A stretch of 62,534 nucleotides of DNA, counting the filler, from a candidate division TA06 bacterium SM23_40 (GTDB taxonomy: Bacteria > LJUI01 > SM1-40), in the NCBI GenBank assembly GCA_001303705.1. It is 6 parts of 6 records of this genome, joined end to end, with 100 filler letters (N's around TTAATTAATTAA, not from the genome) between each part and the next. Parts side by side here need not be neighbours in the genome. Positions count along the whole stretch, not along the records: positions 1 to 17,595 come from LJUI01000041.1; 5 more parts are not named here. One strand, written 5' to 3'. A program made the translations under genes and the position numbers. Below are positions 3,001-55,208 of the stretch, piece by piece; the first letter of the stretch is position 1, and the number at the start of each line of letters is the position of its first letter. A model generated the notes under the pieces. It was not told the DNA's origin and ran no database searches. It saw only the letters and a program-made list of their open reading frames with translations.

Positions 3001-4774
3001 GTCCCCCGGGTGTCTGCCCGCGCATGCCGAGGAGGACGATCAAAGTGATGAATGCGGCGAGGAGGAAACCGAGCGCGGAGAAGTACACGACGGAATGACG
3101 GCGGTAGATCCAGTGCAGGGCGCGGAAACGCCACTTCTCGCCGCATCCGACGAGCAGCGCCAGCTTCTGCCTCCCTTCGCCGACGAGATACGTCCCGACA
3201 TGGGTCCGCCGTTCATCCGCCGCCGTCTCACGGGCGGCGTGCGCCGCAAGAGCGATGGCTTCCCGGGCGACCCGGTCTTCCGCCTGACCGGACCCGCGGG
3301 CGAGCTCCTCGATCCTCCGGCGATACCGGTCGCGTGTGTCGAAATCCATACGGGGATAGATGCCCGATGGATCCGTGCGAAGCAGCCGCTCCACCCGGCT
3401 GAGCTTTTCGAATATTTTTCTCCAATCCAGAAGGGCCAGTTGCCGCAGGCTGGTGAACGCATTTCCGATCGATATCTGATCTCTCATCTGACGGTTGTAC
3501 TCGCGGGGGGTGAGATCGCCGAGGGATATCCGCAGCGTGCGCTCGAGCCATCCCTGAACCGGCACCAGAGCGGCTTCCTGGTCGTAGAGGTTCTCGATCA
3601 GTTGCGCGGCGAAATAGGGGCTCGGGCTCGGGTGCATTTCGGCGAGCTCGGCGAGGATCGAGAAGAGCTGACTGGGATCCCGCCGGTTGGCGGTGATCAG
3701 CCTGTTCGCCCAGAAATCGGCGAATTCGCGCTCCCGCAGCGCCGTCAGCGACTGTTCAGCGAAATTCGAGATGCTCTCGATCAACGCCGCGCGCAGCATC
3801 TGGGGAACGGCCCAGAGCTCGCCGATCGACAGCGCGCCGACCGATTGATATGACTCGATGAAGGCGAGGATGTTCTCCCTGTCGAGGCGCAGGTCCTTAT
3901 GGGAGACGAGACTCCTCGCCAAGCCGTAGATGCGCGGCAGGCCGCGGTAGGGCTCGTTGGCGAGTACCGGCAGTTCCTGGTAATAGCGCCGAGGGAGGTT
4001 CATCTGAATCTCTCGAACGTTGCTCTCGACGATGTACTCGTTGTCCAGGAGCCATTCGGTGGTCGGGGTCGTACTCTGTCCCAGTCGGCTCGCTTCGGCG
4101 AGATCGATGCATGCCCGATGTATCCATCGCATGGTCCGGTCGAGCCGTTTGAGCAGTCCGATGTCCTGGCGGGCATATGGGTCCCCCCGCTGGTCCCCGG
4201 CGAGACGCTCCGCGTATTCCGGGATCTGCGCAGCCGGGAGCGGGCTTCCGAGGTTCTCCGTCTCTCCTACTAGACCCTCCCGCTTCGGATGCAGGATGAA
4301 TATGGCGGGAGGGATCTCGCCGCTCTCTCTCAGTATTGCCACCGGGGAATGCAGCGTTTTGATAGGCGTCCGGAGGATCAGAACGGTCTCTCCGGAAACC
4401 AGCCAGCGTGCGTGATCCTCGAGCAGTCTTCGTTCCAGGCCGAACCTCGATCGCCGTATCCAAGCAGCGGCGAGGAGGATCCCCACGAATCCACCCGCGA
4501 GGCCTGGAATCAGGGCGGAAAGGGCTCCGCCCGGAATCTGCGCCGGCCACTGAAGGGTTATGGAGGTGACTCCGGCGAGGGCCCCGAACAGGATGAACGC
4601 AATGGCCGTCCCGAAAATCCTGCGCCACCGGAAGGGGTCCCGTGTAACCACATTTCCATCCGCGGTCTTGCTCACCAGTGCAGCGCGGCGGAACCCTCTC
4701 CTCTGCAGCTTCTTGAAGGCTCCGCGGGCTTCTTCCCGTTTTGCGAAGTAACCTATGAGGATACCGGTGTCCAT
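1..4774 (-). CDS. ndvB: Cyclic beta-1,2-glucan synthase (Cgs/NdvB/ChvB family), 3' part runs off the window
   Basis: Manual minus-strand translation from ATG 4774 (MDTGILIGYF...) gives family motifs EWLLDNEY, GELWAVPQMLR, GWERKRGKLEELN, PTNIG and YDLLASEARL. It is absent from the ORF track, consistent with no stop before the window edge. Confidence 0.88.
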   Translation of the reverse strand, partial: MDTGILIGYFAKREEARGAFKKLQRRGFRRAALVSKTADGNVVTRDPFRWRRIFGTAIAFILFGALAGVTSITLQWPAQIPGGALSALIPGLAGGFVGILLAAAWIRRSRFGLERRLLEDHARWLVSGETVLILRTPIKTLHSPVAILRESGEIPPAIFILHPKREGLVGETENLGSPLPAAQIPEYAERLAGDQRGDPYARQDIGLLKRLDRTMRWIHRACIDLAEASRLGQSTTPTTEWLLDNEYIVESNVREIQMNLPRRYYQELPVLANEPYRGLPRIYGLARSLVSHKDLRLDRENILAFIESYQSVGALSIGELWAVPQMLRAALIESISNFAEQSLTALREREFADFWANRLITANRRDPSQLFSILAELAEMHPSPSPYFAAQLIENLYDQEAALVPVQGWLERTLRISLGDLTPREYNRQMRDQISIGNAFTSLRQLALLDWRKIFEKLSRVERLLRTDPSGIYPRMDFDTRDRYRRRIEELARGSGQAEDRVAREAIALAAHAARETAADERRTHVGTYLVGEGRQKLALLVGCGEKWRFRALHWIYRRHSVVYFSALGFLLAAFITLIVLLGMRGQTPGGRLLIILLLSIPASQLSLEILNYMITRLLPPRTLPKMDFEDSGIPDEFRTLVVVPIMLVNAETIQTAVDNLEIRYLANKESNLLFGLYSDYTDSNQEHSGEDESLLRMVTEGIEALNQRYGEERFFLFHRERRWSESEQKFIGWERKRGKLEELNRLIDGTRPADADRLVYVGDPDHLSNVRFIITLDSDTQLPHGTARRMIETLAHPLNQPRFNTEGTIEAGSYAIIQPRVSPSLPSTNASLFSRLFSDPVGIDPYTKAVSDVNQDLAGEGSYHGKGIYDVRAFSRVLSGRFPEECLLSHDLIEGAHVRVGLASDIELYDEFPQDYLSYTGRQHRWIRGDWQIAEWILPRAPQSAGRRGHNPLSRFDRWKIFDNLRRSLVPLASMGLLVPSWLISPRMGLISTCVVAVQLLFHPLAQPFTWATTGRWMKGFSFSKVTHDLLRAVVEAALLPHQAWLALDAIVRIWYRRLISHRRLLEWTSAQVMHWNAPGKVRTFVMTLCLSSIFSGIAVWAVQRWAPSSLPVAGPWLALWFVSPLVGWLLVSQPPAKSRQPHLLEEDHRFLRSIARRTWSYFSEFIGEETSWLPPDNYQVSHTNQLSMRTSPTNIGFWMLSALGAHDFGYLTVDQVVEALTRTTETIGKLERYEGHLLNWYDIRTLAPMEPRYVSMVDSGNLLGCLWALEQGLDELIQTPVLDANAFEGMRDTGEILKQAVEAEGVPGFDAHGLDELLRALKSPPERIADAVRLLRRLESGARALGGEAYESAGVHGSTDLREPAAARGSADSYAGAVYWARQVQSQASAWLGIADRYLAWIEILDEKTEEEIAPLGRDVLLAYSGDLHRAPSLLDLANGTVAIIQLLRSIREEAPADAAPLFEWIDRLIQAFEKSKWLASEMLALSTQLIRDGGELSESINVRFLYDTEQRLFSIGYNVSEGRLDSSYYDLLASEARLGSFIAIARGDVPIEHWFSMSRPYGSIGRHRALLSWAGSMFEYLMPLIFQR

Positions 4775-5207
4775 TCTCTATCCTTCTGTCACCACTTGTT
4801 CTGAGCTACCAGGCATTGCGCTGGATTTCACCGGGTGGGAATCTGCAATGCAATTTCGGAGCGTCAATCAGGCTGCGTCTCTGATTGAGAGCAAATGGGT
4901 CTATGATGCTCCATTGTAGAAGCAGCACGGGATTACGTCCACATATATCAGCAGTTATCGGGAAGGGTGCGAATTATTATTACTTTACATAAATCATAAT
5001 ATATCCCTTGTGTTTCGCGTGGGTTGTGCTATATTCAGCCGTGAAACAGATAGATTTAGGAGTGAATATAGCTAGTTATCCGGATAAAGACGATAAACGA
5101 AACCTGCCTTGTTGATCATCTCTATTGGGGAACTCACTTACATTTTTTCCTAAAAAAACTGTTCGATGTAGTTAAGTGGTATCATTTGAGACCAATAGGA
5201 GGTCACA

Positions 5208-5498
5208 ATGAAGATTTATGTAGGCAATATGTCTTACGATACGAGCGAGGACGACCTGCGGAAAGCATTCGAAGCTCACGGTCAGGTAGACTCCGTAAAA
5301 GTCATTACGGACAGGGACACCGGCCGTGCGAAAGGCTTCGGATTCGTCGAGATGTCAAGTGACACCGAGGCCAAGGCGGCAATGGAAGCCCTGAACGAGA
5401 AGGATTTCCAGGGCCGCAGCCTCAAGGTCAACGAGGCACGTGCTCGTAACGAAGGCCTGCGTGGCGGAGGCGGAAGAGGCTTCGGGCGCAGTTACTAG
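5208..5498 (+). CDS. RRM (RNP-1) RNA-binding protein with Gly-rich tail
   Basis: RNP2 IYVGNM, RNP1 KGFGFVEM, GGGGRGFG tail, AGGAGG RBS. Confidence 0.95.
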   Translation: MKIYVGNMSYDTSEDDLRKAFEAHGQVDSVKVITDRDTGRAKGFGFVEMSSDTEAKAAMEALNEKDFQGRSLKVNEARARNEGLRGGGGRGFGRSY

Positions 5499-5587
5499 AA
5501 ACCAGTGATCGGGCCTAATTGAAAGGCATCAGCAACTTAGAGGCAGGTTCATAGATTCGTTTTGATGTTTTCAGTTTACGATCAGAG

Positions 5588-5617
5588 GGGAAGCCGGGTG
5601 ACCGGCTTCCCTTTTTT
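5588..5617 (+). terminator. Rho-independent terminator after the RRM gene
   Basis: GGGAAGCCGG-gtga-CCGGCTTCCC perfect stem followed by T6. Confidence 0.9.
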
Positions 5618-5706
5618 AGGTAAAAAATTATTGCGATGCAGGAGATCAATTTCTATTATCTATTAAAAAATTTATACTTACTAGAGTGAATTCTATAGAT
5701 ACTTGA

Positions 5707-7095
5707 TTGACACGTGCGATCCGATTGTATCTGATCAATCCCTCAAATCCGCTCGTCAGCATCATCAAGATCAAGGAGAGCCGCTGGAACCGTTTCCGCG
5801 TGTGGAAACCGCTCAGTCTCATGGTTCTCGCGGACCTGATCCCACCGGATTGGGAGATCTCGATCTTTGACGAGAACCTCGGCGTTCCGGACTATCCGTC
5901 CCTGCCGCGGCCGGATCTGGTGGGCATTACCGCTTTCACCTCGCAGGCGAACCGCGCGTATGAAGTGGCCGATCACTTCCGGCACTTGGGCGTTCCCGTT
6001 GTCATGGGCGGGATTCACGCAACCATATGCTTAGACGAGGTCATGGAGCGTGTGGATTCGGTTGTCACGGGGGAGGCCGAGGGCATTTGGCATCAGATTC
6101 TGGAAGATGCCCGGCATAAAGGCCTGAAGCGACGGTACGACGGCGGCCTTGCCGCCTCGACCGAAATGCCGATCTCTCGGCACGATTTGCTGGATTCGAG
6201 ATACGCATTCGGAGCCATTCAGACGACACGGGGCTGTCCCTTGAACTGCAGTTTTTGCAGTGTTTCGGCGTTCAACGGGATTCACTACCGCCAACGGTCG
6301 ATTGCCGACGTGGTGCAGGAATTTAAGATGATACGCGAGAAACGTGTTTTAGTGGTGGACGACAACCTCATCGGCACGCGGCCCGAGCACATCGCCCGCG
6401 CCAAGGATCTCTTCCGCGCCTTGGCAAAGGCGGAAGTGCGAAAGGAATGGGTTGCACAGGCCACCATTAATTTCGCCGATGACGATGAACTTCTCGCGTT
6501 GGCCGCGAAAGCTGGTTGCAGCGGCGTCTTCATCGGATTCGAGTCCCCCGTACCGGATGGGCTTCTAGAAATTGGCAAGAAATTCAACCTTCTTAACGGC
6601 CGGGACTTCCGAGCCTCCGTGTAAAGAATTCAGCGTTACAACATAATAGTAGTAGGTTCCCTTATCATTGGTTTGGACGTAGATAAACCGGGCATCGGCA
6701 AACATGTCGCCGAGGTAGCTGACCGGTACGGTGTTGACAGTCTCAACGCGCTGTTTTTGACGCCGTTGCCCGGCACACGTCTCTGGGAGAAGATGAAATC
6801 GGGGGATCGAATCGCTCTCGATGCATTCCCGGAAGATTGGAAATACTATACGCTGACATACCCGGTGGCACGATACAAGCACCTGTCACTAGACGATGTC
6901 TTGCAAGAAATGATAACCTGTAACCACACTTTCTATTCCTTGCCACGCGTTCTTCGCAGAATTTGGAGTAGTGTGAGGCATTACCGCAAGCCGTGGCTGA
7001 GCATAATAGGAAATTTTTCGAGCAGGGGCAACATCCGCTTGGCACACAGGTTGTACGAGGTATACCGGCGTCAGGTTTGGGATAAATTCTCATGA
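5707..7095 (+). pseudogene. B12-binding radical SAM protein interrupted by one in-frame TAA (6622-6624)
   Basis: CPLNCSFC (CxxxCxxC) and VVMGGIHA motifs. ORFs 5707-6624 and 6673-7095 share a frame and read through as ...RASV*RIQRYNIIVVGSLIIGLD... Confidence 0.8.
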
Positions 7096-7170
7096 TGATT
7101 CGGATCGGTTCCGTAGTATTACACCGGTGAGTATTTCTTTTAGTAAGAGGGTGGCAGTTTCATATAGCAC

Positions 7171-7442
7171 AACTGTTGTTTTATCAGTCGGTTAGCTGCC
7201 CAAAAGGTCTCTTAATCAGTAGGTTCGGGGTTCGATTCCCTGGCGGTGCATTTTTATTTATTTAATTGCAATAAGTTAGCGGCCTTGGGTTTTAAGGCGA
7301 AAATCCAAAAAATCAAAAGGTAGCGCATAGGTAGCAGCAAGATGCTGTATGTTTTGAATTTTCTACTATTGCGTTCCGGTTTATAACAAGTGTGTGCTAT
7401 TGTGTATATATATAGTATAATCAACGCACCTGGAGAGCTCTC
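7171..7442 (+). repeat. Kinase-leader element copy 1: tRNA-Lys(CTT) 3'-half core (7209-7250), IHF-like boxes, AGGTAGC direct repeats, promoter/RBS
   Basis: CTCTTAATCAGTAGGTTCGGGGTTCGATTCCCTGGCGGTGCA, then TTAATTGCAATAAGTTA, AAAGGTAGCGCATAGGTAGCAGCA, TATAGTATAAT and GGAGAGCTCTC-ATG. Present four times. Confidence 0.92.
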
Positions 7443-9686
7443 ATGATCGGAAAGACCATTTCCCATTACGAAATCCTTGAGAAGCTCGGCGAGGGCGGTA
7501 TGGGTGTGGTCTACAAGGCCCGCGATACCAGGCTCGACCGGCCGGTCGGGATAAAATTCCTCCCGCCCCATCTGAGCCAGAAGGAGGACGCAAAGAAACG
7601 GTTCGTGCAGGAGGCCAAAGCGGCCTCCGCCCTCGACCATCCCAATATCTGCACCATATATGAGATAGACGAGATTCCTGAAGGACAGATGTTCATCGTC
7701 ATGGCCCACTACGAGGGGGAAACCCTGGAGGAGAGGGTGAAAAAGGGCGGGATCGGCGTCGAGGAGGCGTGCGATATCGTCGAGGCGGTCGCCGGTGGCC
7801 TGGCCGAAGCGCACCGGAGGGGGATCGTCCACCGGGACATCAAGTCGTCCAATATCCTCATCACCGGGGGCGGCCGGGCGAAGATCATCGATTTCGGCCT
7901 GGCCAAGCTGGCCGAGCAAAGCCACCTGACGAGGGAAGGGACTACGTTGGGTACGGTCAAGTACATGTCCCCCGAGCAGGCGCGAGGGGACGAGGTCGAT
8001 CACCGCACTGACATCTGGTCGACGGGGGTGCTCCTCTACGAGGTGATTACCGGCCGAAAGCCGTTCCGGGGGGATTACGACCAGGCGGTCATCTACTCGA
8101 TCCTGAACGATGAGCCGCCGGGGATCAAGACGCTCCGCCCCGAGGCGCCCGCGGCGGTGGAGAAGGTCATCAAAAAGGCCCTGGCCAAGGATCCGGAGCA
8201 GCGGTATCAGCGGATCGAGGATCTGGCGGCGGATGTGCGGTCGGTCCGGGAGGCGGCCCGGACGAAGACGGCGTCGGGGCGGCCCGACCGGGAAAAGCGC
8301 TCCATCGCGGTACTTCCCTTCGTCGACATGAGCCCCCAGAAGGACCAGGAGTACTTCTGCGACGGCCTGGCCGAGGAGCTGATCAATGCGCTGGCCCACA
8401 TCAAGCCGCTCCGCGTGGTGGCCCGGACATCGGCATTCTCGCTCAAGGGCGGGAAGTACGATGTGCGCGAGATCGGCGAGAAGCTGAACGTCGACACGGT
8501 GCTCGAGGGGAGTATCCGGAAGGCGGGCGAGCGGCTTCGGATCACCGCCCAGCTCGTCAGCGCCGCTGATGGGTATCATATCTGGTCGGAGAAGTACGAC
8601 CGCAAGCTGGAGGATATCTTCGCCATACAGGACGAGATCTCGCTCGCGATCGTTGACAAGCTGAAGATAGAACTCCTGGGCGACGAAGCCACCCGGCTGG
8701 TGAAGCGCGGCACGGAGAACCTCGAGGCGTACGATCTCTATATCAGGGGCCGCTTTTTCTGGGAGAAGCGTGGCGAGGGGCTGAAAAGGGCGGTCGAGTA
8801 TTTCGAGAAGGCGATAGAGAAGGACCCGAACTACGCGGAAGCGTACGCCGGTATCGCGGAATCCTACAATCTGCTCTCCTTCTACGGCTACCTGCTGTCC
8901 CGGGAGGCGATTCCCATCGCCAGGGAGAACGCCCTGAAGGCCCTCGAGATCAACGATACCATTGCCGAGGCCCACAACGCTCTGGGATGGATCCACCAGT
9001 ATCACGATTGGGATGGATCGGCGGCTGAGCAGGAGTTCAAGCGGGCCCTGGAACTCAATCCCACTTATACGCCGGCTCATTACTGGTATGCTTCGATGCT
9101 CTCGTTGACGGATCGAGATGATGAGATGCTACGGGAGAACGAGCGCGCGATAGAGGTAGATCCGCTCTCGGTCGTGGCACATGCACAGTACGGCTGGGAC
9201 CTGATCGGCAGGCTTAAATTAGATCAGGCGGAAGAGAAGCTGAAACGCGCGCTCGAGCTAAACCCTGACTACGCGCTCGCCCACTGGCTGCTCGGTTGGG
9301 TCTACGACCTCATGTCGAAAGACGACCAGGCCATCACAGAGCTTCGAAAATCGGTGGAATTGTCTGGCCGCAATCCATGGATACTTTCGACGCTCGGCAA
9401 TGTATACGGCAAAGTGGGGAGGACGGCGGAAGCCCTGGAGGTGCTCACCGAACTTCAGGAACGTTCCGAGAACGAATACGTCCAATCGCTCTATTTCGCG
9501 TATGCTTACGCGGGGCTCGGAGAGCTCGAGGAGACATTGACCTGGCTGGAGAAAGCGTATGAAGCCCATGAACTATGGCTGATCGTGATCGGAAGGTTTT
9601 GGCATATGGATCCTGTCTTCGAAAAAATCCGGGATGATCCCCGTTTCCAGGCGTTTGTCCGGAAGATCCTTGCCTCAATACGTTGA
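7443..9686 (+). CDS. Hanks-type Ser/Thr kinase + TolB_N-like (SIAVLPF) domain + TPR repeats, no TM helix
   Basis: LGEGGMGVVY, HRDIK, DFG, YMSPEQ, then SIAVLPFVDMS and TPR-like helices. Confidence 0.93.
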   Translation: MIGKTISHYEILEKLGEGGMGVVYKARDTRLDRPVGIKFLPPHLSQKEDAKKRFVQEAKAASALDHPNICTIYEIDEIPEGQMFIVMAHYEGETLEERVKKGGIGVEEACDIVEAVAGGLAEAHRRGIVHRDIKSSNILITGGGRAKIIDFGLAKLAEQSHLTREGTTLGTVKYMSPEQARGDEVDHRTDIWSTGVLLYEVITGRKPFRGDYDQAVIYSILNDEPPGIKTLRPEAPAAVEKVIKKALAKDPEQRYQRIEDLAADVRSVREAARTKTASGRPDREKRSIAVLPFVDMSPQKDQEYFCDGLAEELINALAHIKPLRVVARTSAFSLKGGKYDVREIGEKLNVDTVLEGSIRKAGERLRITAQLVSAADGYHIWSEKYDRKLEDIFAIQDEISLAIVDKLKIELLGDEATRLVKRGTENLEAYDLYIRGRFFWEKRGEGLKRAVEYFEKAIEKDPNYAEAYAGIAESYNLLSFYGYLLSREAIPIARENALKALEINDTIAEAHNALGWIHQYHDWDGSAAEQEFKRALELNPTYTPAHYWYASMLSLTDRDDEMLRENERAIEVDPLSVVAHAQYGWDLIGRLKLDQAEEKLKRALELNPDYALAHWLLGWVYDLMSKDDQAITELRKSVELSGRNPWILSTLGNVYGKVGRTAEALEVLTELQERSENEYVQSLYFAYAYAGLGELEETLTWLEKAYEAHELWLIVIGRFWHMDPVFEKIRDDPRFQAFVRKILASIR

Positions 9687-9810
9687 GCGGTAAGATCAAG
9701 GGGGAGCTTCCTATGCATCGGGAATAGCTGCCTGAATCGTTTCCGTCCGATCGTCTGCATTCTCCAGTCGGATAAAAAGCCGTATATATGATATGGCAAC
9801 CACGCCACTT

Positions 9811-10083
9811 AACTGATTTTTTATCAGTCGGTTAGGTGCCCAAATGACCTCTTAATCAGTAGGTTCGGGGTTCGATTCCCTGGCGGCGTATTTTTTATTT
9901 GTTTAATTGTAATAGGGTAGCGGCTTAGAACTTCAAAGCGAAAATCCTAAAAATCGAAAGGTAGCGCATAGGTGCAGCAAAATGCAGTAGTTGCTGTATT
10001 TCTTCCTATTACGTCCTGGTTTATAACTCGTGCATGCTCTTATATATATGATATAGTATGCTTGACGTATCCGGAGATCTCTC
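9811..10083 (+). repeat. Kinase-leader element copy 2 (tRNA-Lys core 9849-9890)
   Basis: CTCTTAATCAGTAGGTTCGGGGTTCGATTCCCTGGCGGCGTA with the same flanking motifs as copy 1. Confidence 0.92.
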
Positions 10084-12420
10084 ATGATCGGTAAGACTAT
10101 ATCTCACTATAAAATACTCGAAGAACTCGGCCGCGGCGGTATGGGTGTTGTCTACAAGGCGGAAGATACGAAGCTCCGCCGCACCGTAGCGCTGAAGTTC
10201 CTCACTCCCCAGGCGCTCGGGACGGAAGACGAGAAAGCGCGCTTCATACACGAGGCGCAGGCGGCCGCCGCGCTCAATCATCCCAATATCTGCACGGTCT
10301 ACGAGATCGATGAGTTGGAAGGCCGATCCTTTATTGCGATGGAATATATCGAGGGACGGAGTTTGAGGGATATCATCGCGTCGGGTCCGATGAAATTGGA
10401 GATAGCACAGGGAATCGCGATACAGATTGCCGGGGGGTTGCATGCGGCTCACCAAAGACAAATCGTGCATCGCGACATAAAGCCCGCGAATATCATGATC
10501 ACCGGCGAGGGAAGAGTTAAGATCATGGACTTCGGTCTCGCGAAGTCGCCGGGCCGAACGCAGCTCACGCGCGAAGGGACTACGCTTGGAACGGTGGCAT
10601 ACATGTCGCCTGAGCAGAGCAGAGGAGAGGCGGTTGATTCTCGCACTGACATCTGGTCACTCGGTGTGATGCTCTATGAAATGGTAACGGGGCAGGCACC
10701 GTTCAGAGGTGACTATGAGCAGGCAGTTATCTACTCGATCCTGCACGAGGACCCCGAGCCGGTGACGGCGCTTCGAACCGGCGTGCCGGTTGAGCTTGAG
10801 AGAATCGCTCACAAGGCGATGGCAAAGAACGCGAGTGATCGATACCAGCGTGCCGATGAGCTGCTGGTGGATCTCAGATCTTTGTCGGCTGAGATAACAA
10901 CCACCGGTTTAGCAAAGGGTCCAGCAAAGAAAGGATTCACGGGAAAGCATATCGGTTTTGTATTCGGTTCGGTAGTAATTATCGTTGCAGCTCTCGTGCT
11001 TGCAAGACTCTATCTCTTTCCCGAAAAAAGCGAAGCGATCGATTCGATAGCGGTGCTGCCGCTCGAGAATTTATCACGGGATCCTGATCAGGAATACTTC
11101 GTTGATGGGATGACCGAGGCGCTTATCGCCGATCTTGGGAAGACCGGCACGATCAAGGTGATCTCGCGGACATCGGTCATGCGCTACAAGGATACAGACA
11201 AATCCCTGCCGGAGATTGCGAACGAGCTCGGCGTCGATGCGATCGTCGAGGGATCGGTCATGCAGACAGGAGGCCGGGTGCGCATCACGGCACAGCTCAT
11301 CGAGGCGGACGAGGATCATCAAATCTGGGGGGAGCACTACGAGCGTGACCTGCAAGATGTCCTGGCGCTACAGCGTGGGGTAGCACGCGCGATCGCCAGT
11401 GAAATAAATATCACTTTGGCACCAGGGGAAAAAGGCGAAAAATCTGATGCCCGCCGGATCGATCCCCGCGCTCATGAAGCGTACCTCAAGGGGCGCTACC
11501 ACTGGAACAAGAGGACGGAGAAGGATCTCTGGAAAAGCATCGAATATTTCGAGGAGGCTATCAGGATGGATCCCGATTACGCCCAGGCGTATGCGGGACT
11601 TGCGGAAGCCTTCACCATACTCAGAAACTGGGGATATTATTCGGCAAAAGAAGCCAATCAAAAAGCAAAGGAATACGCCCACAAGGCGCTCTCGATAGAC
11701 AACAAATCGGCGGCGGCGTATTCGGTGCTCGGCCTAGAATCTCTCGAATACGAGTATAACTGGGAGGCTGCGGAAGAATATTTTAAAAAAGCGATATCGC
11801 TGAATCCGAACTATGCCACCGCTCACCATTGGTATGCAAATATTCTTGCCCGCTGGGGGCGACATGATGAGGCGATGGAACAGATGCTGCGAGCCCTGAA
11901 GCTCGATCCACTGTCCCTTGTCATAAACGTGGCCCTTGCTCTTAACTATTATTATGTGGGTCGCTACGATGAAGCGATCGAGCAGAGCCGGAAGTCGCTC
12001 GAACTGGATAAGAATTTCCTTGCTGCTTATTTTGTTTTGTACCTTTGCTACGTAGAGAAAGGAATGATTCAGGAAGCTTACGAGGCATTCAGGCAAGTGA
12101 TGATCCTTGACGAAAAAACAAGCATATATGTGGAAGAACTCGACCATGTCTGCAAAACGTCGGGGTACGAAGTCTGCAATACATGGTGGGTAATCAAGAA
12201 CATGGATGAATGGTCGTTCCATGACTATAACTACCCGTTCTATCGGTCCATGGCTTATGCACGGATTGATAATAAGGACAAAGCGTTTGAAGAATTGGAA
12301 AAGGCGTATGAAGCGCGTTCGCCGTATTTAATATCGATCGGCGTCGAGCCGGCGCTCGACACCCTTCGATCGGATCCGCGTTTTGATGAGCTGCTCAAAA
12401 AGGTCGGATTAAAAGAGTGA
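10084..12420 (+). CDS. Ser/Thr kinase + TM helix + TolB_N-like domain + TPR repeats
   Basis: Kinase motifs HRDIKPAN/DFG/YMSPEQ, hydrophobic IGFVFGSVVIIVAALVLARLYL, SIAVLPLENLS, TPRs. Confidence 0.93.
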   Translation: MIGKTISHYKILEELGRGGMGVVYKAEDTKLRRTVALKFLTPQALGTEDEKARFIHEAQAAAALNHPNICTVYEIDELEGRSFIAMEYIEGRSLRDIIASGPMKLEIAQGIAIQIAGGLHAAHQRQIVHRDIKPANIMITGEGRVKIMDFGLAKSPGRTQLTREGTTLGTVAYMSPEQSRGEAVDSRTDIWSLGVMLYEMVTGQAPFRGDYEQAVIYSILHEDPEPVTALRTGVPVELERIAHKAMAKNASDRYQRADELLVDLRSLSAEITTTGLAKGPAKKGFTGKHIGFVFGSVVIIVAALVLARLYLFPEKSEAIDSIAVLPLENLSRDPDQEYFVDGMTEALIADLGKTGTIKVISRTSVMRYKDTDKSLPEIANELGVDAIVEGSVMQTGGRVRITAQLIEADEDHQIWGEHYERDLQDVLALQRGVARAIASEINITLAPGEKGEKSDARRIDPRAHEAYLKGRYHWNKRTEKDLWKSIEYFEEAIRMDPDYAQAYAGLAEAFTILRNWGYYSAKEANQKAKEYAHKALSIDNKSAAAYSVLGLESLEYEYNWEAAEEYFKKAISLNPNYATAHHWYANILARWGRHDEAMEQMLRALKLDPLSLVINVALALNYYYVGRYDEAIEQSRKSLELDKNFLAAYFVLYLCYVEKGMIQEAYEAFRQVMILDEKTSIYVEELDHVCKTSGYEVCNTWWVIKNMDEWSFHDYNYPFYRSMAYARIDNKDKAFEELEKAYEARSPYLISIGVEPALDTLRSDPRFDELLKKVGLKE

Positions 12421-12469
12421 TCGGTGAAATCATTTGGTAATGCATTTTCGATAGACTTAAAATGACAAC

Positions 12470-12592
12470 ATGATCGGTAAGACCATTTCACATTACAATA
12501 TCCTCGAAGAACTCAGCCGCAGCGGCATGTTGGTTGTCTACAAGGCGAAGGATACGAAGCCGAAGCACACTGTGGTGCTTGAGCTCCTTTAG
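12470..12592 (+). pseudogene. Degenerate 40-codon remnant of a fifth kinase N-terminus
   Basis: Translates MIGKTISHYNILEELSRSGMLVVYKAKDTKPKHTVVLELL*. The Gly-rich loop and catalytic Lys are mutated, and it stops just before element copy 3. Confidence 0.85.
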
Positions 12593-12595
12593 CTC

Positions 12596-12864
12596 ACCTG
12601 ATGTATTATCAGCAGGTTTGACGCCCAATTGGTCTCTTAGTCAGTAGGTTCGGGGTTCGATTCCCTGGTGGTGCATTTTTATTTATTTAATTGCAATAAG
12701 TTAACGTTTTAGAGCCCCGTTCCCAATATCCCGAAAATCGAAAGGTAGCGCATAGGTAGCAGCAGAATGCTGTATTTATTGTTTCTCCTGCTATAACATC
12801 TATATGACTAGTGTATCACCTTGCGGGTATGATACAGTATATGTAACGTGCCTGGAGAGCTCTC
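12596..12864 (+). repeat. Kinase-leader element copy 3 (tRNA-Lys core 12634-12675)
   Basis: CTCTTAGTCAGTAGGTTCGGGGTTCGATTCCCTGGTGGTGCA plus conserved flanks. Confidence 0.9.
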
Positions 12865-15552
12865 ATGATCGGCAAGACAGTATCCCATTACAAGATCCTC
12901 GAAAAGCTTGGTGAGGGCGGGATGGGTGTGGTATATCGTGCGCACGATACCGCGTTGGGCCGTGACGTTGCACTCAAGTTCCTGCCCACCAACTTAACCC
13001 GCGATCCCACGGCCAAGACGCGGTTCGTCCGAGAGGCACGTGCAGCCTCCGCACTCGATCATCCAAATGTATCCACGGTGTACGAGATAGACGAGACCGA
13101 AGAGGGTCAGCTTTTTATCGCCATGACCTACTATGAAGGTGAGGCATTGAGAGAAAGGCTCTCCCGCGGGCCCCTGCCCCTGGAGGATGCCATGAGCATA
13201 ACAATTCAGATCGCGCAAGGGCTCTTGGCTGCTCACCAAAAGGATATCGTCCACCGGGATATCAAGGCGGCGAATGTTTTTCTTACCTCCAGCGGCCTCG
13301 TGAAGATCCTGGATTTCGGGCTGGCGAAGCTTTCCGGGGTGACGCAGCTGACACTGCCCGAGACGACCGTCGGCACGGTTTCTTACATGTCCCCGGAGCA
13401 GGCCCAGGGAGCGGAGATCGACAGCCGATCCGACGTATGGTCATTGGGCGTCGTTCTCTACGAGATGGTCACCGGCCAACTGCCCTTTCGAGGGGAATTC
13501 CCGGAGGCGATGGTGTACTCCATCCTCAATGAAGATCCCCCGCGCGTGACCGGGCTGCGGTCGGGTGTTCCTCTTGAACTGGAGAGAATCATCGATAAGT
13601 GCCTCGCAAAGGGTGCGGACCAGCGGTATCAGCACCTCGATGATCTCATCGTCGATCTCAACCGCCTTAAGCCTTCCCTGGCCAGTGGGTCAGGTGTGAG
13701 ATCAATGGAGCCTGCGAGCACAGTTCGAGGTGTACGCCGTTCACTGCTGTTCGCGGTGGCCGGGTTCGGTTGGCTTGCAGCCGTTATGGTCAGCCTTTAT
13801 CTGTTGCGTCCCCCCGCGCAGCATCCTCCCGTGCGGCTGCATACTATCTCTTACTCCGGTCGGGACTGGGCGCCCAACGCTTCCCCGGCAGGAGACATGA
13901 TCGCATTCGCATCCGATCGCGACGGAGTGTCCCGGATCTGGCTCAAGCAGGTGGCCGGCGGCAGCGAGGAGCCCATTACAGAAGGGCCCGACGATCTTCC
14001 CCGCTTCTCGCCAGACGGAGCGCAGATCCTGTTTGTGCGAGACCTGGGTGGCACGAGGGATCTCTACCGTACATCTGTAGTCGGTGCCCAGCAGCGCCGG
14101 ATACTCGAGGATGTAAGCGAGGCCGACTGGTCACCGGACTTGAAGAATGTGGCTTTTATAAGAACGGAACCGGTGGGCGAGGATAATATCGAGGTCATCG
14201 GCGTGGCAGATATTCAAACGGGTGATGAGCAGATCCTCGCAGAGATTCCAAATCGCCTTTGCTACGGTATCCGGTGGTCACCGGATGGACGGCGTATCGC
14301 CGTGAGCGAGACTCATTCATCTCCCGCGACGACAGGGTTCCACTATATCGACTTGATCTACGTTCCATCGGGCGAGATCACGCGCCTCGAGCTCACCGAC
14401 ATGGCGGGACCGTACACGGCTACCGAGTGGGGCCCGGACGGCCAGACGTTTCTGGCCGGTCAGGCTGCAGCCGTTCTCACGCAGTTCGGGGATTTCCCCG
14501 GCCAGATCATGGAGTACGACCTCGAATCAAAGACCGTTCACCCCTTGTTCTGGTCACCCGTCAAGCTGCCGTTTGGCGGGCGGAGATTCTCGACGATTGC
14601 TATTCTCGGTAACGATCGGTTCGTCATAGACGAAAATATAGCCAATTCGGTCCTCATTGAAGTTCCATGGTCTGGAAAGAACAGCACCGGCTTGGGAAGA
14701 ACGCTCACACGTGGATTGGGACGGGACCGGCAGCCCGCCTATTCACCGGACGGGGATCGTGTCATCTTCTCGTCCAATCGCAGCGGGAACACCGATCTCT
14801 GGACCGTCGACCGGAACACGGGAACAATCCGCCAGCTGACCGACGATCCCGCTATCGATTATGATCCGGCGTTCTTCCCCGACGGCGAGCGCATCGTGTG
14901 GACATCCACCCGCAGCGGCAATCCGGAGATCTGGATGGCTGCCGCCGATGGAAGCCGGGCACAGCAGGTCACGCGGGACGGCATGGATGCAGAGAATGCG
15001 ACCGTTACTGCCGACGGGGAATGGATCGTATACGGCAGTTTCAACGATGAAACGATCGGTATATTGAAAATACGCCCCGACGGTTCGGATATGACGTTCC
15101 TTGCGGAAGGCTCCTATGTTAATCCCGAAGTTTCGCCTGACGGACGGTACGTTCTGTTTCTGGTAACTCGCGGCCTCGGCACTGTTATGAAAATTGTCGA
15201 GACCGAGAGTGCCCGGATAGTGCCATTCGAGATCGAATTTCCCACGAGAATGCTGCACGAGAATATAGTTATCGGGCGCGCACGGTGGACGCACGACGGC
15301 CGTGGAATCGTCTATGTGGGGCATGATGAACGAGGGTGCTTCGGTATCTACGTGCAGGATTTCATCCCGGGACGCGACACGTCCGGATCACGAAGGCCGC
15401 TTGCCGGTTTCTCGAATGACTTTATCACGGAATCTCTCGGTGTCTCGCCCGATGGCAGGCACATCGCTATCTCAGTACTGTCCGAGCGTCTGAGTCTCAA
15501 GCTCGCCGAGCTGGTACCCCTTAGTTGGGGGGACGGCACGAGCGCCGAATAG
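12865..15552 (+). CDS. Ser/Thr kinase + TM helix + TolB/PD40-type beta-propeller repeats
   Basis: Kinase motifs HRDIK/DFG/YMSPEQ, TM LLFAVAGFGWLAAVMVSLYLL, repeated PxFSPDG/WSPDG/YSPDG motifs. Confidence 0.93.
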   Translation: MIGKTVSHYKILEKLGEGGMGVVYRAHDTALGRDVALKFLPTNLTRDPTAKTRFVREARAASALDHPNVSTVYEIDETEEGQLFIAMTYYEGEALRERLSRGPLPLEDAMSITIQIAQGLLAAHQKDIVHRDIKAANVFLTSSGLVKILDFGLAKLSGVTQLTLPETTVGTVSYMSPEQAQGAEIDSRSDVWSLGVVLYEMVTGQLPFRGEFPEAMVYSILNEDPPRVTGLRSGVPLELERIIDKCLAKGADQRYQHLDDLIVDLNRLKPSLASGSGVRSMEPASTVRGVRRSLLFAVAGFGWLAAVMVSLYLLRPPAQHPPVRLHTISYSGRDWAPNASPAGDMIAFASDRDGVSRIWLKQVAGGSEEPITEGPDDLPRFSPDGAQILFVRDLGGTRDLYRTSVVGAQQRRILEDVSEADWSPDLKNVAFIRTEPVGEDNIEVIGVADIQTGDEQILAEIPNRLCYGIRWSPDGRRIAVSETHSSPATTGFHYIDLIYVPSGEITRLELTDMAGPYTATEWGPDGQTFLAGQAAAVLTQFGDFPGQIMEYDLESKTVHPLFWSPVKLPFGGRRFSTIAILGNDRFVIDENIANSVLIEVPWSGKNSTGLGRTLTRGLGRDRQPAYSPDGDRVIFSSNRSGNTDLWTVDRNTGTIRQLTDDPAIDYDPAFFPDGERIVWTSTRSGNPEIWMAAADGSRAQQVTRDGMDAENATVTADGEWIVYGSFNDETIGILKIRPDGSDMTFLAEGSYVNPEVSPDGRYVLFLVTRGLGTVMKIVETESARIVPFEIEFPTRMLHENIVIGRARWTHDGRGIVYVGHDERGCFGIYVQDFIPGRDTSGSRRPLAGFSNDFITESLGVSPDGRHIAISVLSERLSLKLAELVPLSWGDGTSAE

Positions 15553-15627
15553 CCCGGATCCCCAGTCGTGATCCTTTGCGGAATGTCCTGGGATACCATG
15601 AAGTCATTCGTTCAGCACAATAAGAAA

Positions 15628-15894
15628 AGCTGTTGTTTTATCAGTAGGTTAGCTGCCCAAAAGGCCTCTGAATCAGTAGGTTCTCCGGTTCGATTCCTTG
15701 GCGGCGTATTTTTTATTTATTTAATTGCAATAAGTTAACGACTTACAGCATCGCTACCAAAATCACAAAAATCGAAAGGTAGCGCATAGGTAGTAGCAAA
15801 ATACTGTAATTACTGTCTACCACATTCTGGCTTATAACTCGTGTATGCTCTTGTTTGTATGATATAGTATAATGAGCTTACCTGGAGAACTCTC
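15628..15894 (+). repeat. Kinase-leader element copy 4 (degenerate tRNA-Lys core 15666-15708)
   Basis: CTCTGAATCAGTAGGTTCTCCGGTTCGATTCCTTGGCGGCGTA. The T-stem is damaged but the flanks are conserved. Confidence 0.9.
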
Positions 15895-17595
15895 ATGGTC
15901 GGCAAGACTATTTCACATTATAAGGTCCTCGAGAAGCTCGGTGAGGGCGGGATGGGCGTGGTCTACAAGGCCCGCGATACCAAACTCGACCGCACCGTCG
16001 CGCTGAAGTTCTTGCCGCTGCATCTCACCGGCGCGGATGAAGACAAGCAGCGATTCATCCGCGAAGCGAAAGCGGCCGCGGCGCTGAACCATTCGAATAT
16101 CTGCACGATCTATTCAGTGGAAGAACACGGCGGGTACCAATTCATCTCGATGGAATACGTCGACGGAATGACGTTGCGTGAAAAATGCGGTACGACCGGT
16201 CCGGTCGCTGTGCCGTCCAAAGAGGCAATCGGGTATGCGATACAGATCGCCGAAGCCCTCTCGGAAGCCCATGAAAAGGGAATCATCCACCGTGATATCA
16301 AACCCGGAAACATCATGGTGGATTCGAAGAACCGGATAAAGGTCATGGACTTCGGTCTGGCCAAATTGAAGGATGTGAGCCCTCTCACCAAGGCAGGCAC
16401 GACGGTCGGAACGCTCGCCTACATGTCGCCGGAACAGATACAGGGGCAAGACGTCGATCACCGTTCGGACATCTTTTCATTCGGTGTCGTCCTGTACGAA
16501 ATGCTCGCGGGACAGACCCCCTTCCGCGGCGATCACGAAGCGGCGATGATGTACTCGATCGTGCATGAAGAGCCGCAGCCGATATCGTCCTCTGTGCCCG
16601 AGATATCATCTCAGCTCGAAAATTTCATCGAAAGAACGCTGGAAAAGGATCCCTCTGACCGGTACCAATCGATGCAGGATCTACTCAGTGATTTGAGGCG
16701 CTTGAAAAGAAAAACATCCAAGAAGGCGGCGACTGTGGTCGGCGCCGCACCCCCTGCCCCGTCAGTAGCGGAACAACAGCAATCTTTCGGCACGCGCTCT
16801 GTTGCGCGTTCTCCGGTCTTTTACATTGCTATAGCCATGGTCGTTGTAATTGCCGCGGTGGCGTCATACGTGATCTTCTTCCTCCCGAAGAGTGGTGACG
16901 CCCCCCCGATGAATCCCAACAGAGTCTTTGTCGCGGCGTTTGAAAACCGCACCAGCGATCCGGCCCTCGACCCGATCGGAAGGCTGGCGTCGGATTGGGT
17001 CACGCAGGGGATAGTGCAGAACGAGCTCGCCGAGGCGATACCGACGACGACAATGCTTATGCTTATGCAGGATGCCGGGTTGAAGGAAGCCGGATTCGAG
17101 GATCGAGATAAGCTCATCGAACTGGCGGAGGCGACGCATTCGGGGATTCTCGTGGCGGGGATGTTTTATCAGGTCGGCGAGGATATACAGATCGAGGCGC
17201 AGATCATCGATGCGCAGAGGAACGATGTCATCCTGACGCTCGATCCGGTTCGCGGTCCCCGGAGCGAGCCGATGAAGGCGATCGACGCGCTGCGGCAGAA
17301 GGTCATGGGAGCGCTCGCGATTCACATTACACCAGGGGTTGCTATTGCGACGGTCGGCGAGCCGCCGGTCTACGAAGCGTATGTGGAATATATGGAAGGA
17401 ACGAAATACTTCGGCATGGACTATGAAAAATCATTCGAACACTACCGGCGCGCATTGGAGATAGATCCTCACTATATGGGACCGAAGCTGAGGATGGCGA
17501 CCGGATATGCGAATATGGGGCAGTATGAAACCGCCGATTCGATTTTTCAAACCATTGATCGCCACAGTCGTAGATTATCTCCGTATGAGCGGTAT
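15895..17595 (+). CDS. Ser/Thr kinase + TM + divergent TolB_N-like domain + TPR (truncated at contig end)
   Basis: HRDIKPGN/DFG/YMSPEQ, TM VFYIAIAMVVVIAAVASYVIFFL, RVFVAAFENRT. Confidence 0.92.
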
Positions 17596-17695
17596 NNNNN
17601 NNNNNNNNNNNNNNNNNNNNNNNNNNNNNNNNNNNNNNNTTAATTAATTAANNNNNNNNNNNNNNNNNNNNNNNNNNNNNNNNNNNNNNNNNNNN
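17596..17695. other. Artificial contig spacer (N-TTAATTAATTAA-N)
   Basis: Stops in all six frames inside a run of Ns. Confidence 0.98.
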
Positions 17696-22725: not shown

Positions 22726-22825
22726 NNNNNNNNNNNNNNNNNNNNNNNNNNNNNNNNNNNNNNNNNNNNTTAATTAATTAANNNNNNNNNNNNNNNNNNN
22801 NNNNNNNNNNNNNNNNNNNNNNNNN
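22726..22825. other. Artificial contig spacer
   Basis: N-TTAATTAATTAA-N. Confidence 0.98.
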
Positions 22826-27852: not shown

Positions 27853-27952
27853 NNNNNNNNNNNNNNNNNNNNNNNNNNNNNNNNNNNNNNNNNNNNTTAA
27901 TTAATTAANNNNNNNNNNNNNNNNNNNNNNNNNNNNNNNNNNNNNNNNNNNN
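27853..27952. other. Artificial contig spacer
   Basis: N-TTAATTAATTAA-N. Confidence 0.98.
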
Positions 27953-45620: not shown

Positions 45621-46472
45621 ATGCCTGTACAGAGTGACTACACCATGGACGAGGTAGGGGCATGCCGGTCTGTCATTCTGGAGATCGCGTCATGCCTGGG
45701 CGCTTACAGGGATCACATGGTTCTGGTCGGTGGTTGGGCCCCCTACTTTCTCCTCCAGAGACATCGCGAGACGAACCACTGTGGAAGCCTCGACGTGGAC
45801 ATAGCCCTCGACTCCAACGCCATTCCCGCAGATGCCTATCAGAGTATTCTAAGCACCCTTCAGGAACGAGGCTTCGAGCCGAGAAGGGACGTCAAAGGAA
45901 ATGTCATTCCCTCGAGCTTTCTTCGGACTTTCACTGGCACGGAGGGACGAGAGCACGTTGTGCAAGTGGATTTTCTCGCGCCCGAATACGGTGGCACGGG
46001 AAAGAACAGGAGGCATCAAAGGGTACAGGATCTGCTCGCGCGGAAGTGTCGTGGCAGTGACCTCGTCTTTGACATGAATCAGGCAATCACGTTGCGAGAC
46101 CGTCTGCCAAATGGTGCATGGAATGAGGCCGAGATTAAGGTAGCTGATGTGGGAGCGGTACTGGCCATGAAAGGCTTCGCATTCTTCGACCGAAGCAGCG
46201 AGAAAGATGCATACGACATCTACATGCTCTGTCGTGAGTACGGAACCGGCCCAGATGATGTGGCTGAGGCGGTCATTCCGAGGTCCAGTAACAGACTCAT
46301 CAGGGAGGGATTGTCGAAGATCAGTGACAAATTCTCAGCTCATGATGCGGTTGGCCCAGTGGCAGTCGCCGACTTTCTCGAAGAAATCGATAGAGAGGAA
46401 CGAGAGCGCATCGCACGGGACGCCTACGAAGTGATTGATTACGTCCTCAAGCGGATCTACCCGGAGGCATGA
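45621..46472 (+). CDS. Nucleotidyltransferase, AbiEii-like toxin
   Basis: LVGGWAP, SLDVDIAL, VDFL, MK..A..DR..EKDAYDIY, directly downstream of the AbiEi-like gene. Confidence 0.78.
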   Translation: MPVQSDYTMDEVGACRSVILEIASCLGAYRDHMVLVGGWAPYFLLQRHRETNHCGSLDVDIALDSNAIPADAYQSILSTLQERGFEPRRDVKGNVIPSSFLRTFTGTEGREHVVQVDFLAPEYGGTGKNRRHQRVQDLLARKCRGSDLVFDMNQAITLRDRLPNGAWNEAEIKVADVGAVLAMKGFAFFDRSSEKDAYDIYMLCREYGTGPDDVAEAVIPRSSNRLIREGLSKISDKFSAHDAVGPVAVADFLEEIDREERERIARDAYEVIDYVLKRIYPEA

Positions 46473-49765: not shown

Positions 49766-49865
49766 NNNNNNNNNNNNNNNNNNNNNNNNNNNNNNNNNNN
49801 NNNNNNNNNTTAATTAATTAANNNNNNNNNNNNNNNNNNNNNNNNNNNNNNNNNNNNNNNNNNNN
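49766..49865. other. Artificial contig spacer
   Basis: N-TTAATTAATTAA-N. Confidence 0.98.
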
Positions 49866-55108: not shown

Positions 55109-55208
55109 NNNNNNNNNNNNNNNNNNNNNNNNNNNNNNNNNNNNNNNNNNNNTTAATTAATTAANNNNNNNNNNNNNNNNNNNNNNNNNNNNNNNNNNNN
55201 NNNNNNNN
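55109..55208. other. Artificial contig spacer
   Basis: N-TTAATTAATTAA-N. Confidence 0.98.

Follow-up and report, generated by a model that had tools for sequence, protein, structure and literature searches.

The closest described analogue of the locus reported here is the set of genomic islands at ssrA in Dehalococcoides, where tandem islands lie downstream of one tDNA and each is bounded by a direct repeat of its 3' end. These islands carry paralogous rdhA cargo, a short conserved motif adjoins each repeat, and 15 of them, which have no integration module, have been proposed to move by accretion as cis-mobilizable elements (PMC3146451, available part of the article). The same part of that article cites the concept of the cis-mobilizable element (CIME), which is flanked by attachment (att) sites and has no recombination genes (PMC3146451). 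For tRNA genes in general, the available part of the Islander article treats regenerated tRNAs, displaced 3' fragments, anticodon-centered attP sites, and tandem islands as standard; it gives 2083 islands with an anticodon-centered attP and 125 tandems of two or more, and a tandem is counted only if every member has its own integrase (PMC4383910). Here, we describe a locus of an uncultured sediment bacterium, candidate division TA06 bacterium SM23_40 (GenBank assembly GCA_001303705.1), at which four Ser/Thr kinase genes in tandem are each preceded by a noncoding element holding the 3' half of a tRNA-Lys(CTT) gene. The whole stretch of DNA that was analyzed, hereafter the window, is 62,534 nt long. 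With a probability of roughly 0.55, this array arose by tandem amplification of integrase-less (CIME-like) units of a tRNA-Lys island, with attP-type junctions that are still constrained and act as recombination points. Other close systems are CIMEs and the site-specific accretion of Streptococcus integrative and conjugative elements (ICEs), in which att-flanked elements without recombination or transfer genes are joined in tandem to related elements.

Like Islander-type islands, those considered here have ends marked by co-oriented displaced 3' fragments, an identity block that runs from the anticodon loop, and a regenerated target tRNA. Unlike Islander tandems, the units in the window have no integrase, measure 2.6–3.0 kb, and carry one gene each with paralogous cargo, and an intact tRNA was not seen alongside them. 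The Dehalococcoides system has a tmRNA gene, 20-bp repeats, and a serine recombinase module, whereas the window has tRNA-Lys(CTT), a 42-nt core, what we infer to be the heterobivalent arms of a tyrosine integrase, single-gene units, and Ser/Thr kinase cargo. The locus differs from CIMEs and Streptococcus ICEs in that no helper element or integrase was seen beside the array. A preliminary description of this DNA, made from the sequence alone, knew of no described system of this form; however, comparable tandem integrase-less tDNA islands and CIMEs are already in print, as the available part of the Dehalococcoides article attests (PMC3146451). Kinase arrays at tRNA-Lys were not described in the literature that we searched, which covered titles and abstract openings.

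The window consists of six contigs joined by N spacers, and the array is confined to contig 1 (positions 1–17595). Neighborhood across the spacers is meaningless because the contigs are concatenated; the spacers (17596–17695, 22726–22825, 27853–27952, 49766–49865, and 55109–55208) each contain two 44-N runs flanking a short AT linker. On contig 1, four units are arranged head to tail, each comprising a conserved noncoding element of about 280 nt followed by a Ser/Thr kinase gene (Table 1). A repeat search returned four-copy direct-repeat families with start-to-start spacings of 2640/2641, 2781–2785, and 3030–3034. The four upstream regions aligned at a mean column identity of 78%, and the homology of the units ran from a sharp start at −281, relative to the ATG, to about +790. 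The repeat search and the alignment together confirmed the recurring noncoding element that had initially been reported in front of four Ser/Thr kinase genes. A Pkinase domain was detected by Pfam in all four downstream open reading frames (ORFs), with E values of 1e-50 to 1e-59. The amino acid identity among the four kinase domains was 53–64%; the sensors of kinases 1 and 2 were 35% identical, that of kinase 4 was weakly related to them, and that of kinase 3 was unrelated. Units 1–3 each lie between two junctions and contain a kinase gene only, apart from a 40-codon kinase fragment in unit 2, so that these units, like CIMEs, have att sites on both sides and no recombination or transfer genes within. 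The earlier statement that every unit carries exactly one intact kinase gene applies to kinases 1–3, whereas kinase 4 meets the contig end and unit 2 adds the kinase 5' fragment. The array may extend past kinase 4, since contig 1 ends there.

When aligned with the genuine tRNA-Lys(CTT) gene of a relative, the element resolved into a decayed tRNA-like remnant (X), a tRNA 3' half (O), an arm to its right (P'), and a promoter-like region. A 22-nt T-arm/acceptor pattern had exactly four matches (7229, 9869, 12654, and 15687), compared with 0.02 expected, and none of 100 shuffles reached four. O starts at the anticodon loop in every copy and ends 192, 193, 189, and 186 nt before the ATGs of kinases 1–4, respectively. 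Placed ungapped from tRNA position 31-32, it matched the genuine gene at 41/42, 41/42, 38/42, and 25/42 bases, the last count being low because copy 4 has a 1-nt insertion. X, which is about 38 nt long, found its best ungapped placement on tRNA-Lys(CTT) at position 23-24 in all four copies, with 22–26 matches in 40, and between 0 and 4 of 2000 shuffles matched as well. It holds a full inverted repeat around a 7-nt spacer whose sequence varies between the copies; X1 is made up of this anticodon-arm-like inverted repeat and variable-region-like bases. Because X and O overlap in tRNA coordinates (about 24–50 and 32–73), the two represent separate, nested tRNA pieces and are not the remains of a single tRNA that decayed. 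The arm to the right of O carries a box of two GGTAGC repeats 11 bp, or one helical turn, apart (GGTAGC-N5-GGTAGC), which is perfect in copies 1 and 3. Each unit also has its own conserved −10-like motif and a GGAG ribosome-binding site (RBS) just before the ATG. The −10-like motif was not listed by the consensus promoter scan, which returned 12 promoter-like matches (7.2 expected) and 9 terminator-like matches (8.6 expected), and the terminator scan placed no terminator at the tRNA-like part. From this anatomy, the element is probably an attP-type X-O-P' junction. Matching to the genuine tRNA verified the 42–43-nt 3' half of tRNA-Lys(CTT) 186–193 nt before the kinase ATG, as first noted; this core stood as the content of the element, which now also extends to X on its left and to the paired-repeat box on its right.

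The conservation of the junctions was compared with that of the genes that they separate. At four-fold degenerate sites, the four kinase domains were 35% identical, compared with 32% expected from composition; therefore, the kinases have diverged beyond synonymous saturation, in agreement with the initial view that they are well diverged and not recent identical duplicates. Mean pairwise identity was 79% for X, 89% for O, 89% for the T-rich flank, and 88% for the box region, compared with 58–63% for the two spacers in the element; the −10-like motif and the RBS reached 79% and 75%, respectively. The block conservation of the element exceeds the neutral expectation. A plain tandem paralog array lacking site-specific junction features does not fit the att-type blocks, whose identity lies far above that of the synonymous sites.

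This constraint acts on DNA and not on an RNA fold. We considered whether the tRNA-like element could be a functional RNA transcribed with the kinases, such as a tRNA-like processing signal, a small RNA, or a leader, and this is hardly credible. A T-run follows the acceptor-like end and copy 2 folds tRNA-like (z = −2.83), but it is alone in doing so, and the z-scores of copies 1, 3, and 4 (0.43, 0.12, and −0.43) mean that three of the four copies fold no better than shuffles. Copy 4 and several copies of the closest relative have lost T-stem pairing but keep the T-loop bases, and X and O are two partial copies with overlapping tRNA coordinates. ARAGORN found no tRNA gene in the window and hence no intact tRNA-Lys on the array contig, and no tRNA model matched the window in Rfam at E ≤ 10, the two matches obtained being to other models and both below their gathering scores. 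The functional-RNA reading was rejected because Rfam and folding gave no consistent result, and a tRNA gene or structured tRNA-like RNA was rejected on the basis of zero ARAGORN genes, no Rfam tRNA match, and inconsistent fold z-scores. A miniature inverted-repeat transposable element or a repetitive extragenic palindromic element was likewise rejected, as terminal inverted repeats were not found in the element by the repeat search.

The window covers 62.5 kb of its genome, and genome-level tests were made on the loci of relatives. The panel of relatives comprised 61 genomes, namely G002, which is the closest relative of the window, and 60 of its relatives. A box scan of genome contigs found a matching element 5' of a kinase in two records of metagenome-assembled genomes (MAGs), CP070795.1 (G001) and CP070727.1 (G002). 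These two MAG “chromosome” records (L001 and L002) differ in size and have an identical element-bearing contig, so the bins overlap; the label of CP070795.1, candidate division WOR-3, should be treated cautiously.

Two relatives carry kinase units at the tRNA gene itself. On a 15-kb contig of G014 (C75), an intact tRNA-Lys(CTT) is followed by a P' arm and promoter, kinase A, X-O-P', kinase B, kinase C without an element, a partial O with a box, a first T9SS-cargo gene (type IX secretion system), a box alone, a second T9SS-cargo gene, and a final X-O, after which the DNA is unrelated (a small ORF and MscS). In G032 (C59), the order is tRNA-Arg, tRNA-His, tRNA-Lys(CTT), one kinase, X-O, an RRM protein, and a B12-radical-SAM gene, and the acceptor end of the X-O fragment equals that of the tRNA-Lys of G032 itself. 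Judged by gene order, the G014 and G032 loci are evidently integrase-less islands at the tRNA, in which the intact tRNA with P' would be attL and X-O would be attR. In both, the unit starts at an intact tRNA-Lys(CTT) and ends at a displaced fragment, which bears out the original proposal that the kinase units are tied to a tRNA-Lys target. In G032, the RRM protein and B12-radical-SAM genes stand beyond attR and do not belong to the island; their counterparts in the window precede copy 1. X-O-P' junctions in relatives also flank T9SS-cargo genes with FlgD_ig or Por_Secre_tail C-termini and radical-SAM genes (L014 = G002:1–16000, L017, and L056 = G014:C75). When 301 relatives were searched with the P'-promoter part (E ≤ 1e-5, two candidates per genome scored), the full P'-promoter module was present in at least two, a lower bound because G014 was missed. 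A different cargo was observed in G041 (L058, C1:318000–337999), where tRNA-Lys(CTT) and a GGTACC pair are followed by an AAA/nSTAND-like ATPase, a subtilase, and further ORFs; from their N-termini and sizes, read by eye, these ORFs suggest a type I restriction-modification system, and the locus looks like a defense island at the same hot spot.

The tRNA match and the conserved box support the earlier view that the tRNA piece is an att-site remnant and that the junctions are attP-like. The element matched 40 of the 61 genomes, and 23 of the 29 best loci were intact tRNA-Lys(CTT) genes with an 84–100% match. Downstream of the genuine tRNA-Lys(CTT) of G010 lies, at a similar distance, a degenerate GGTAGC-type pair, and the genuine tRNA-Lys(CTT) genes of G040, G041, and G025 precede a GGTACC pair. 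G025 also encodes a 396-aa tyrosine integrase (Arm-DNA-bind_3, Phage_int_M, and Phage_integrase domains) that starts about 45 nt from a GGTAGC-N5-GGTAGC pair, and a 47-nt tRNA-Lys(CTT) fragment lies about 115 nt past the box, with no intact tRNA at that spot. Homologs of this integrase were detected in 8 of the 61 genomes. Ten homologous integrase loci were read by eye: a direct repeat pair with 11-bp spacing occupied the same position in five, a tRNA 3' fragment lay 100–230 nt further on in six, and the repeat sequence changed with the integrase lineage. One of these six, beside an integrase of G053, is a fragment of tRNA-Lys(CTT) and starts at the anticodon loop, exactly as O does. Tyrosine integrases linked to tRNA-Lys(CTT), which the preliminary description had called for in this lineage, therefore exist at G025:C36, G053:C69, and G053:C9.

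The box was also followed into metagenomes with a degenerate pattern, which matched 107 stretches; 80 of these loci (L078–L157) were used. An integrase N-terminus lay 27–58 nt to the left of the box in 13 of these 80 loci, an intact tRNA (Arg, Leu, Met, Lys-CTT, and others) ended 22–141 nt to its left in 17, and a T-arm motif not belonging to a tRNA lay 104–207 nt to its right in 13, six of which also had the integrase. None of the three was present in 45 of the 80, and 21 of the 80 had less than 300 nt to the left, too short to reveal an integrase or tRNA. In the window, 87 nt separate the T arm from the box on its right, which matches the arrangement of the attL-type metagenome loci. The position, pairing, and spacing of the conserved box to the right of the core are those expected for an integrase arm-type site, and the loci of the relatives together with the 80 metagenome loci suggest that the box serves a widespread DUF4102 (Arm-DNA-bind_3) tyrosine integrase family as its arm-type site. 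The DUF4102 arm-binding domain is characteristic of the IntSXT subgroup, whose members are integrases of islands, ICEs, and phages (PMC8138268). The integrase of G025 that is linked to both the box and tRNA-Lys(CTT) has this same N-terminal domain, and no such protein was found in the window. No literature report of a GGTAGC-N5-GGTAGC arm motif was found, although the motif itself was not searched for. As a further observation, the intact tRNAs beside the GGTAGC-N5-GGTAGC pair, in samples unrelated to one another, represent at least ten anticodon types.

The closest relative was then compared with the window for the order of its modules. Orthologs of kinases 1 and 3 in G002 were 90% and 88% identical, respectively, in the kinase domain, and an ortholog of kinase 3 was also present in L082. 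In G002, the kinase 1 ortholog is followed by another kinase that is 71% identical to kinase 2, the kinase 2 ortholog is preceded by a T9SS gene, and the orthologs of kinases 2 and 3 are separated by T9SS and radical-SAM modules that span about 8.7 kb and have junction copies of their own. The left side of the window junction between kinases 1 and 2 corresponds to the sequence downstream of kinase 1 in G002, its right side corresponds to the sequence upstream of kinase 2 in G002, and the switch falls inside X/O. Thus, a comparison of cassette order, as proposed at the outset, found that gene order differs between the window and G002 with a breakpoint in X/O. In G014, the tRNA-proximal and second copies were 99–100% identical from the first base of O to about kinase codon 26 and about 55–65% identical beyond. 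This tract is a recent gene conversion or exchange whose right end lies in coding DNA, and cassette insertion as the source of the G014 copies was not upheld.

Some junctions of G002 have a short form (L016:5302, L014:1900, and L018:5555), in which about 37 nt between two ATCAGTNGGTT repeats of X and O are absent; it looks as though X and O had recombined together. Two short-form copies in G002 run into another common sequence and not into the P' arm. To the left of X1, an extension (about 7126–7170) is common to the copies of relatives and aligns with L001 and L017; a conserved extension of about 45 nt that follows T9SS stop codons in relatives is the one that also precedes copy 1 (7126–7170).

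For the tandem amplification of island units, which would be the simplest way to account for the array, we propose the following route. The ancestral unit would have been a small integrase-less island, tRNA-Lys-P'-promoter-kinase-X-O, of the form still present at the tRNA gene of relatives. Joining the attR of one copy to the attL of the next would give exactly an X-O-P' junction, and this could have come about through excision and re-integration by an integrase, through exchange of attL with attR on sister chromosomes, or through unequal crossing-over within O; repeated joining would have built the array. Subsequently, the kinases would have diverged to synonymous saturation and gained different sensors, while the junction blocks may have been kept by constraint on protein-binding DNA and by gene conversion. 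The junctions would still be preferred recombination points, reshuffling kinase, T9SS-cargo, and radical-SAM modules between close relatives, and the present reshuffling could be either site-specific, through an integrase acting in trans, or homologous.

A number of observations weigh against such amplification of island units, and several of them would also suit ordinary paralog expansion, in which a kinase 3' of tRNA-Lys(CTT) near an old island scar was multiplied by unequal homologous crossing-over, the att remnant being inert and the element conserved through promoter or terminator use and through gene conversion among copies and with the real tRNA. Among the latter, all copies share one left remnant X, so the junction probably had a single origin and spread by copying. 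Neither array examined yielded an integrase: in the 62.5-kb window, none was detected by tblastn with one integrase or by Pfam on 30 ORFs of the other contigs, and none lies within the G014 array. Neither an intact tRNA-Lys nor an adjoining integrase, both of which the preliminary description had proposed to look for, was detected in the window by ARAGORN, tblastn, and Pfam. The conversion tract of G014 ends inside the kinase coding region. The right core half-site is present, but the sequence on the left of O is no mirror image of this anticodon-stem half-site, whereas X has a full inverted repeat around a different 7-nt spacer; for a tyrosine recombinase, the sites in the window may thus lack a necessary part. 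Some copies have a decayed box, with a one-base deletion in copy 2 and a one-base change in copy 4, both in the second repeat, and with degenerate or decayed boxes in the two kinase copies of G014; moreover, the full P'-promoter module was recovered from just two of the 301 relatives, the lower bound given above. Other points bear on the amplification of island units alone. One breakpoint of the extra 8.7 kb in G002 lies near −76 of kinase 3, away from the core; kinase 1 orthologs in G002 and G014 directly follow another kinase with no element between; and no integrase was found in G002 with two queries. The window array may not sit at a tRNA locus, because its contig has no intact tRNA-Lys and copy 1 is preceded by the RRM and radical-SAM genes. 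Quartet site counts of 6:5:4 (elements) and 6:5:8 (kinase domains) left the two histories neither linked nor separated; the same counts neither favor nor disfavor a two-unit block duplication, with copies 1 and 3 alike and copies 2 and 4 alike. Paralog expansion is nonetheless unlikely, although it carries some weight. Conservation is block-wise, with 88–89% identity in the blocks that have att counterparts against 58–63% in the spacers, and gene conversion alone is disfavored because it would homogenize the spacers too. The T-stem pairing is not preserved and there is no common fold or terminator, relatives have these junctions around cargo of unrelated kinds (T9SS proteins and radical-SAM enzymes), and X-O marks the far island end in G014 and G032.

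A more active origin was also weighed, in which the units are integron-like cassettes, that is, single-gene, promoter-bearing circles re-inserted at X-O-P' or tRNA-Lys by an integrase encoded elsewhere. The att architecture with putative arm sites retained under constraint, the module order that differs between close relatives with a breakpoint in X/O, the single-kinase island of G032 between the tRNA and X-O, and the orphan integrase of the same family on another contig of array-bearing G014, which has no tRNA fragment beside it, are all consistent with this origin. However, it appears improbable. Assembled contigs of public sequencing runs (Logan contigs from four marine sediment and seawater metagenome runs, at 90% likeness) gave no usable sign of circles or empty sites either way. 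Many joints were found in these contigs, in conserved kinase-domain DNA and probably from paralogs of other organisms; one that goes back 2781 (12915 to 10135) falls within the conserved 5' end of the kinase genes and is ambiguous, and the contig or loose ends at 7209 and 9849 are places where graphs break at the core, at which genuine tRNA-Lys 5' halves also join. A metagenome contig (L147) that is 99.87% identical to the window keeps the same order of kinase 2, fragment, junction, and kinase 3 over 3723 nt. The anticodon-loop-like spacers in X differ between copies, and differing spacers would hinder tyrosine-recombinase exchange between sites. The kinases are anciently diverged paralogs and not recent cargo, and there are no attC-like hairpins. 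Integrons have intI, attI, and the Pc promoter, and their promoterless cassettes end in attC hairpins; the likeness of the present array to them is functional only and consists in small, mostly single-gene modules between recombination sites, as the contig has no intI/attI/Pc platform and no attC-type palindromes and the modules have their own promoter-like motif and RBS. An integron was therefore rejected, as the window yielded no recombinase, the element showed neither a conserved hairpin nor a conserved inverted repeat, and the units bear promoter-like motifs; the integron-like anatomy first suggested, judged by the lack of attC hairpins and by the promoters of the units, was not borne out. 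An extended form, a tRNA-anchored integron-like system in which small promoter-bearing kinase, T9SS, and radical-SAM units, each bounded by X-O-P', are cut out, multiplied, and rearranged in trans by a DUF4102-type integrase reading the GGTAGC pair, with altered-spacer X sites orthogonal to the essential tRNA gene, is just as doubtful.

Amplification of a minimal integrase-less tRNA island, as opposed to plain gene duplication, would offer a concrete route by which bacterial sensor kinases multiply and diversify. The attP-type junctions have outlasted the divergence of their cargo to synonymous saturation, which raises the question of whether orphan att sites are kept by an integrase that uses them in trans. 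The GGTAGC-N5-GGTAGC pair, a candidate arm site for integrases of a widespread clade, could serve as a sequence marker of island ends. Active sites would make the units naturally occurring integrative modules of very small size, each with its own promoter.

Table 1: Coordinates of junctions, arms, and kinase genes of the array on contig 1 of the window.
Feature	Position	Strand	Remarks
X1, older decayed tRNA-Lys-like piece	7171–7208	+	22/40 from tRNA position 24; 4/2000 shuffles equal
O1, 42-nt tRNA-Lys(CTT) 3' half, anticodon loop to discriminator base	7209–7250	+	41/42 from position 32
P' arm 1	7251–7341	+	T-rich flank 7251–7280, spacer, box 7316–7339 (repeats 7319–7335)
Promoter-like region and RBS of kinase 1	7406–7442	+	−10-like AT-rich motif 7411–7421, GGAG RBS 7432–7437; read from alignment
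Kinase 1, 747 aa	7443–9686	+	Pkinase and TPR sensor
Junction 2	9811–9890	+	X2 9811–9848 (26/40, 0/2000 shuffles), O2 9849–9890 (41/42)
P' arm 2	9891–10083	+	Degenerate box 9960–9975, second repeat minus one base; promoter-like motif, RBS
Kinase 2, 778 aa	10084–12420	+	Pkinase and TPR sensor
40-codon kinase 5' fragment, stop-terminated	12470–12592	+	Abuts junction 3; no element 5' of it
Junction 3	12596–12675	+	X3 12596–12633, O3 12634–12675 (38/42)
P' arm 3	12676–12864	+	Intact box 12741–12764; promoter-like motif, RBS; sigma-70-like match 12804–12833
Kinase 3, 895 aa	12865–15552	+	Pkinase and PD40 beta-propeller sensor
Junction 4	15628–15708	+	X4 15628–15665, O4 15666–15708 (inserted base, T-stem pairing broken)
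P' arm 4	15709–15894	+	Box 15775–15798, one mismatch; promoter-like motif, RBS
Kinase 4, at least 567 aa	15895–17595	+	Pkinase and TPR-like sensor; truncated by contig end

The 40-codon kinase fragment of unit 2 may be a deletion scar or a small upstream ORF. The composite of this fragment with a junction also occurs at L082:1839–1985, L014:1774–1896, and L018:5420–5542; it is conserved in three lineages, an extra copy lies at another locus of G002, and the frame of the fragment has decayed in L082. To the left of the array, the B12-binding radical-SAM gene consists of two ORFs on the plus strand, 5707–6624 (305 aa) and 6673–7095 (140 aa), whereas its ortholog in G032 is a single 458-aa ORF (L063:9772–11148); the split could be a frameshift, a pseudogene, or an assembly error. 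At the left end of contig 1, an open frame of 1591 aa on the minus strand (2–4774) reaches past the contig start and matched nothing in Pfam at E ≤ 0.001. An AbiEii-like nucleotidyltransferase of a type IV toxin-antitoxin family (E 3e-07) is encoded on a different contig of the window, at 45621–46472 on the plus strand.

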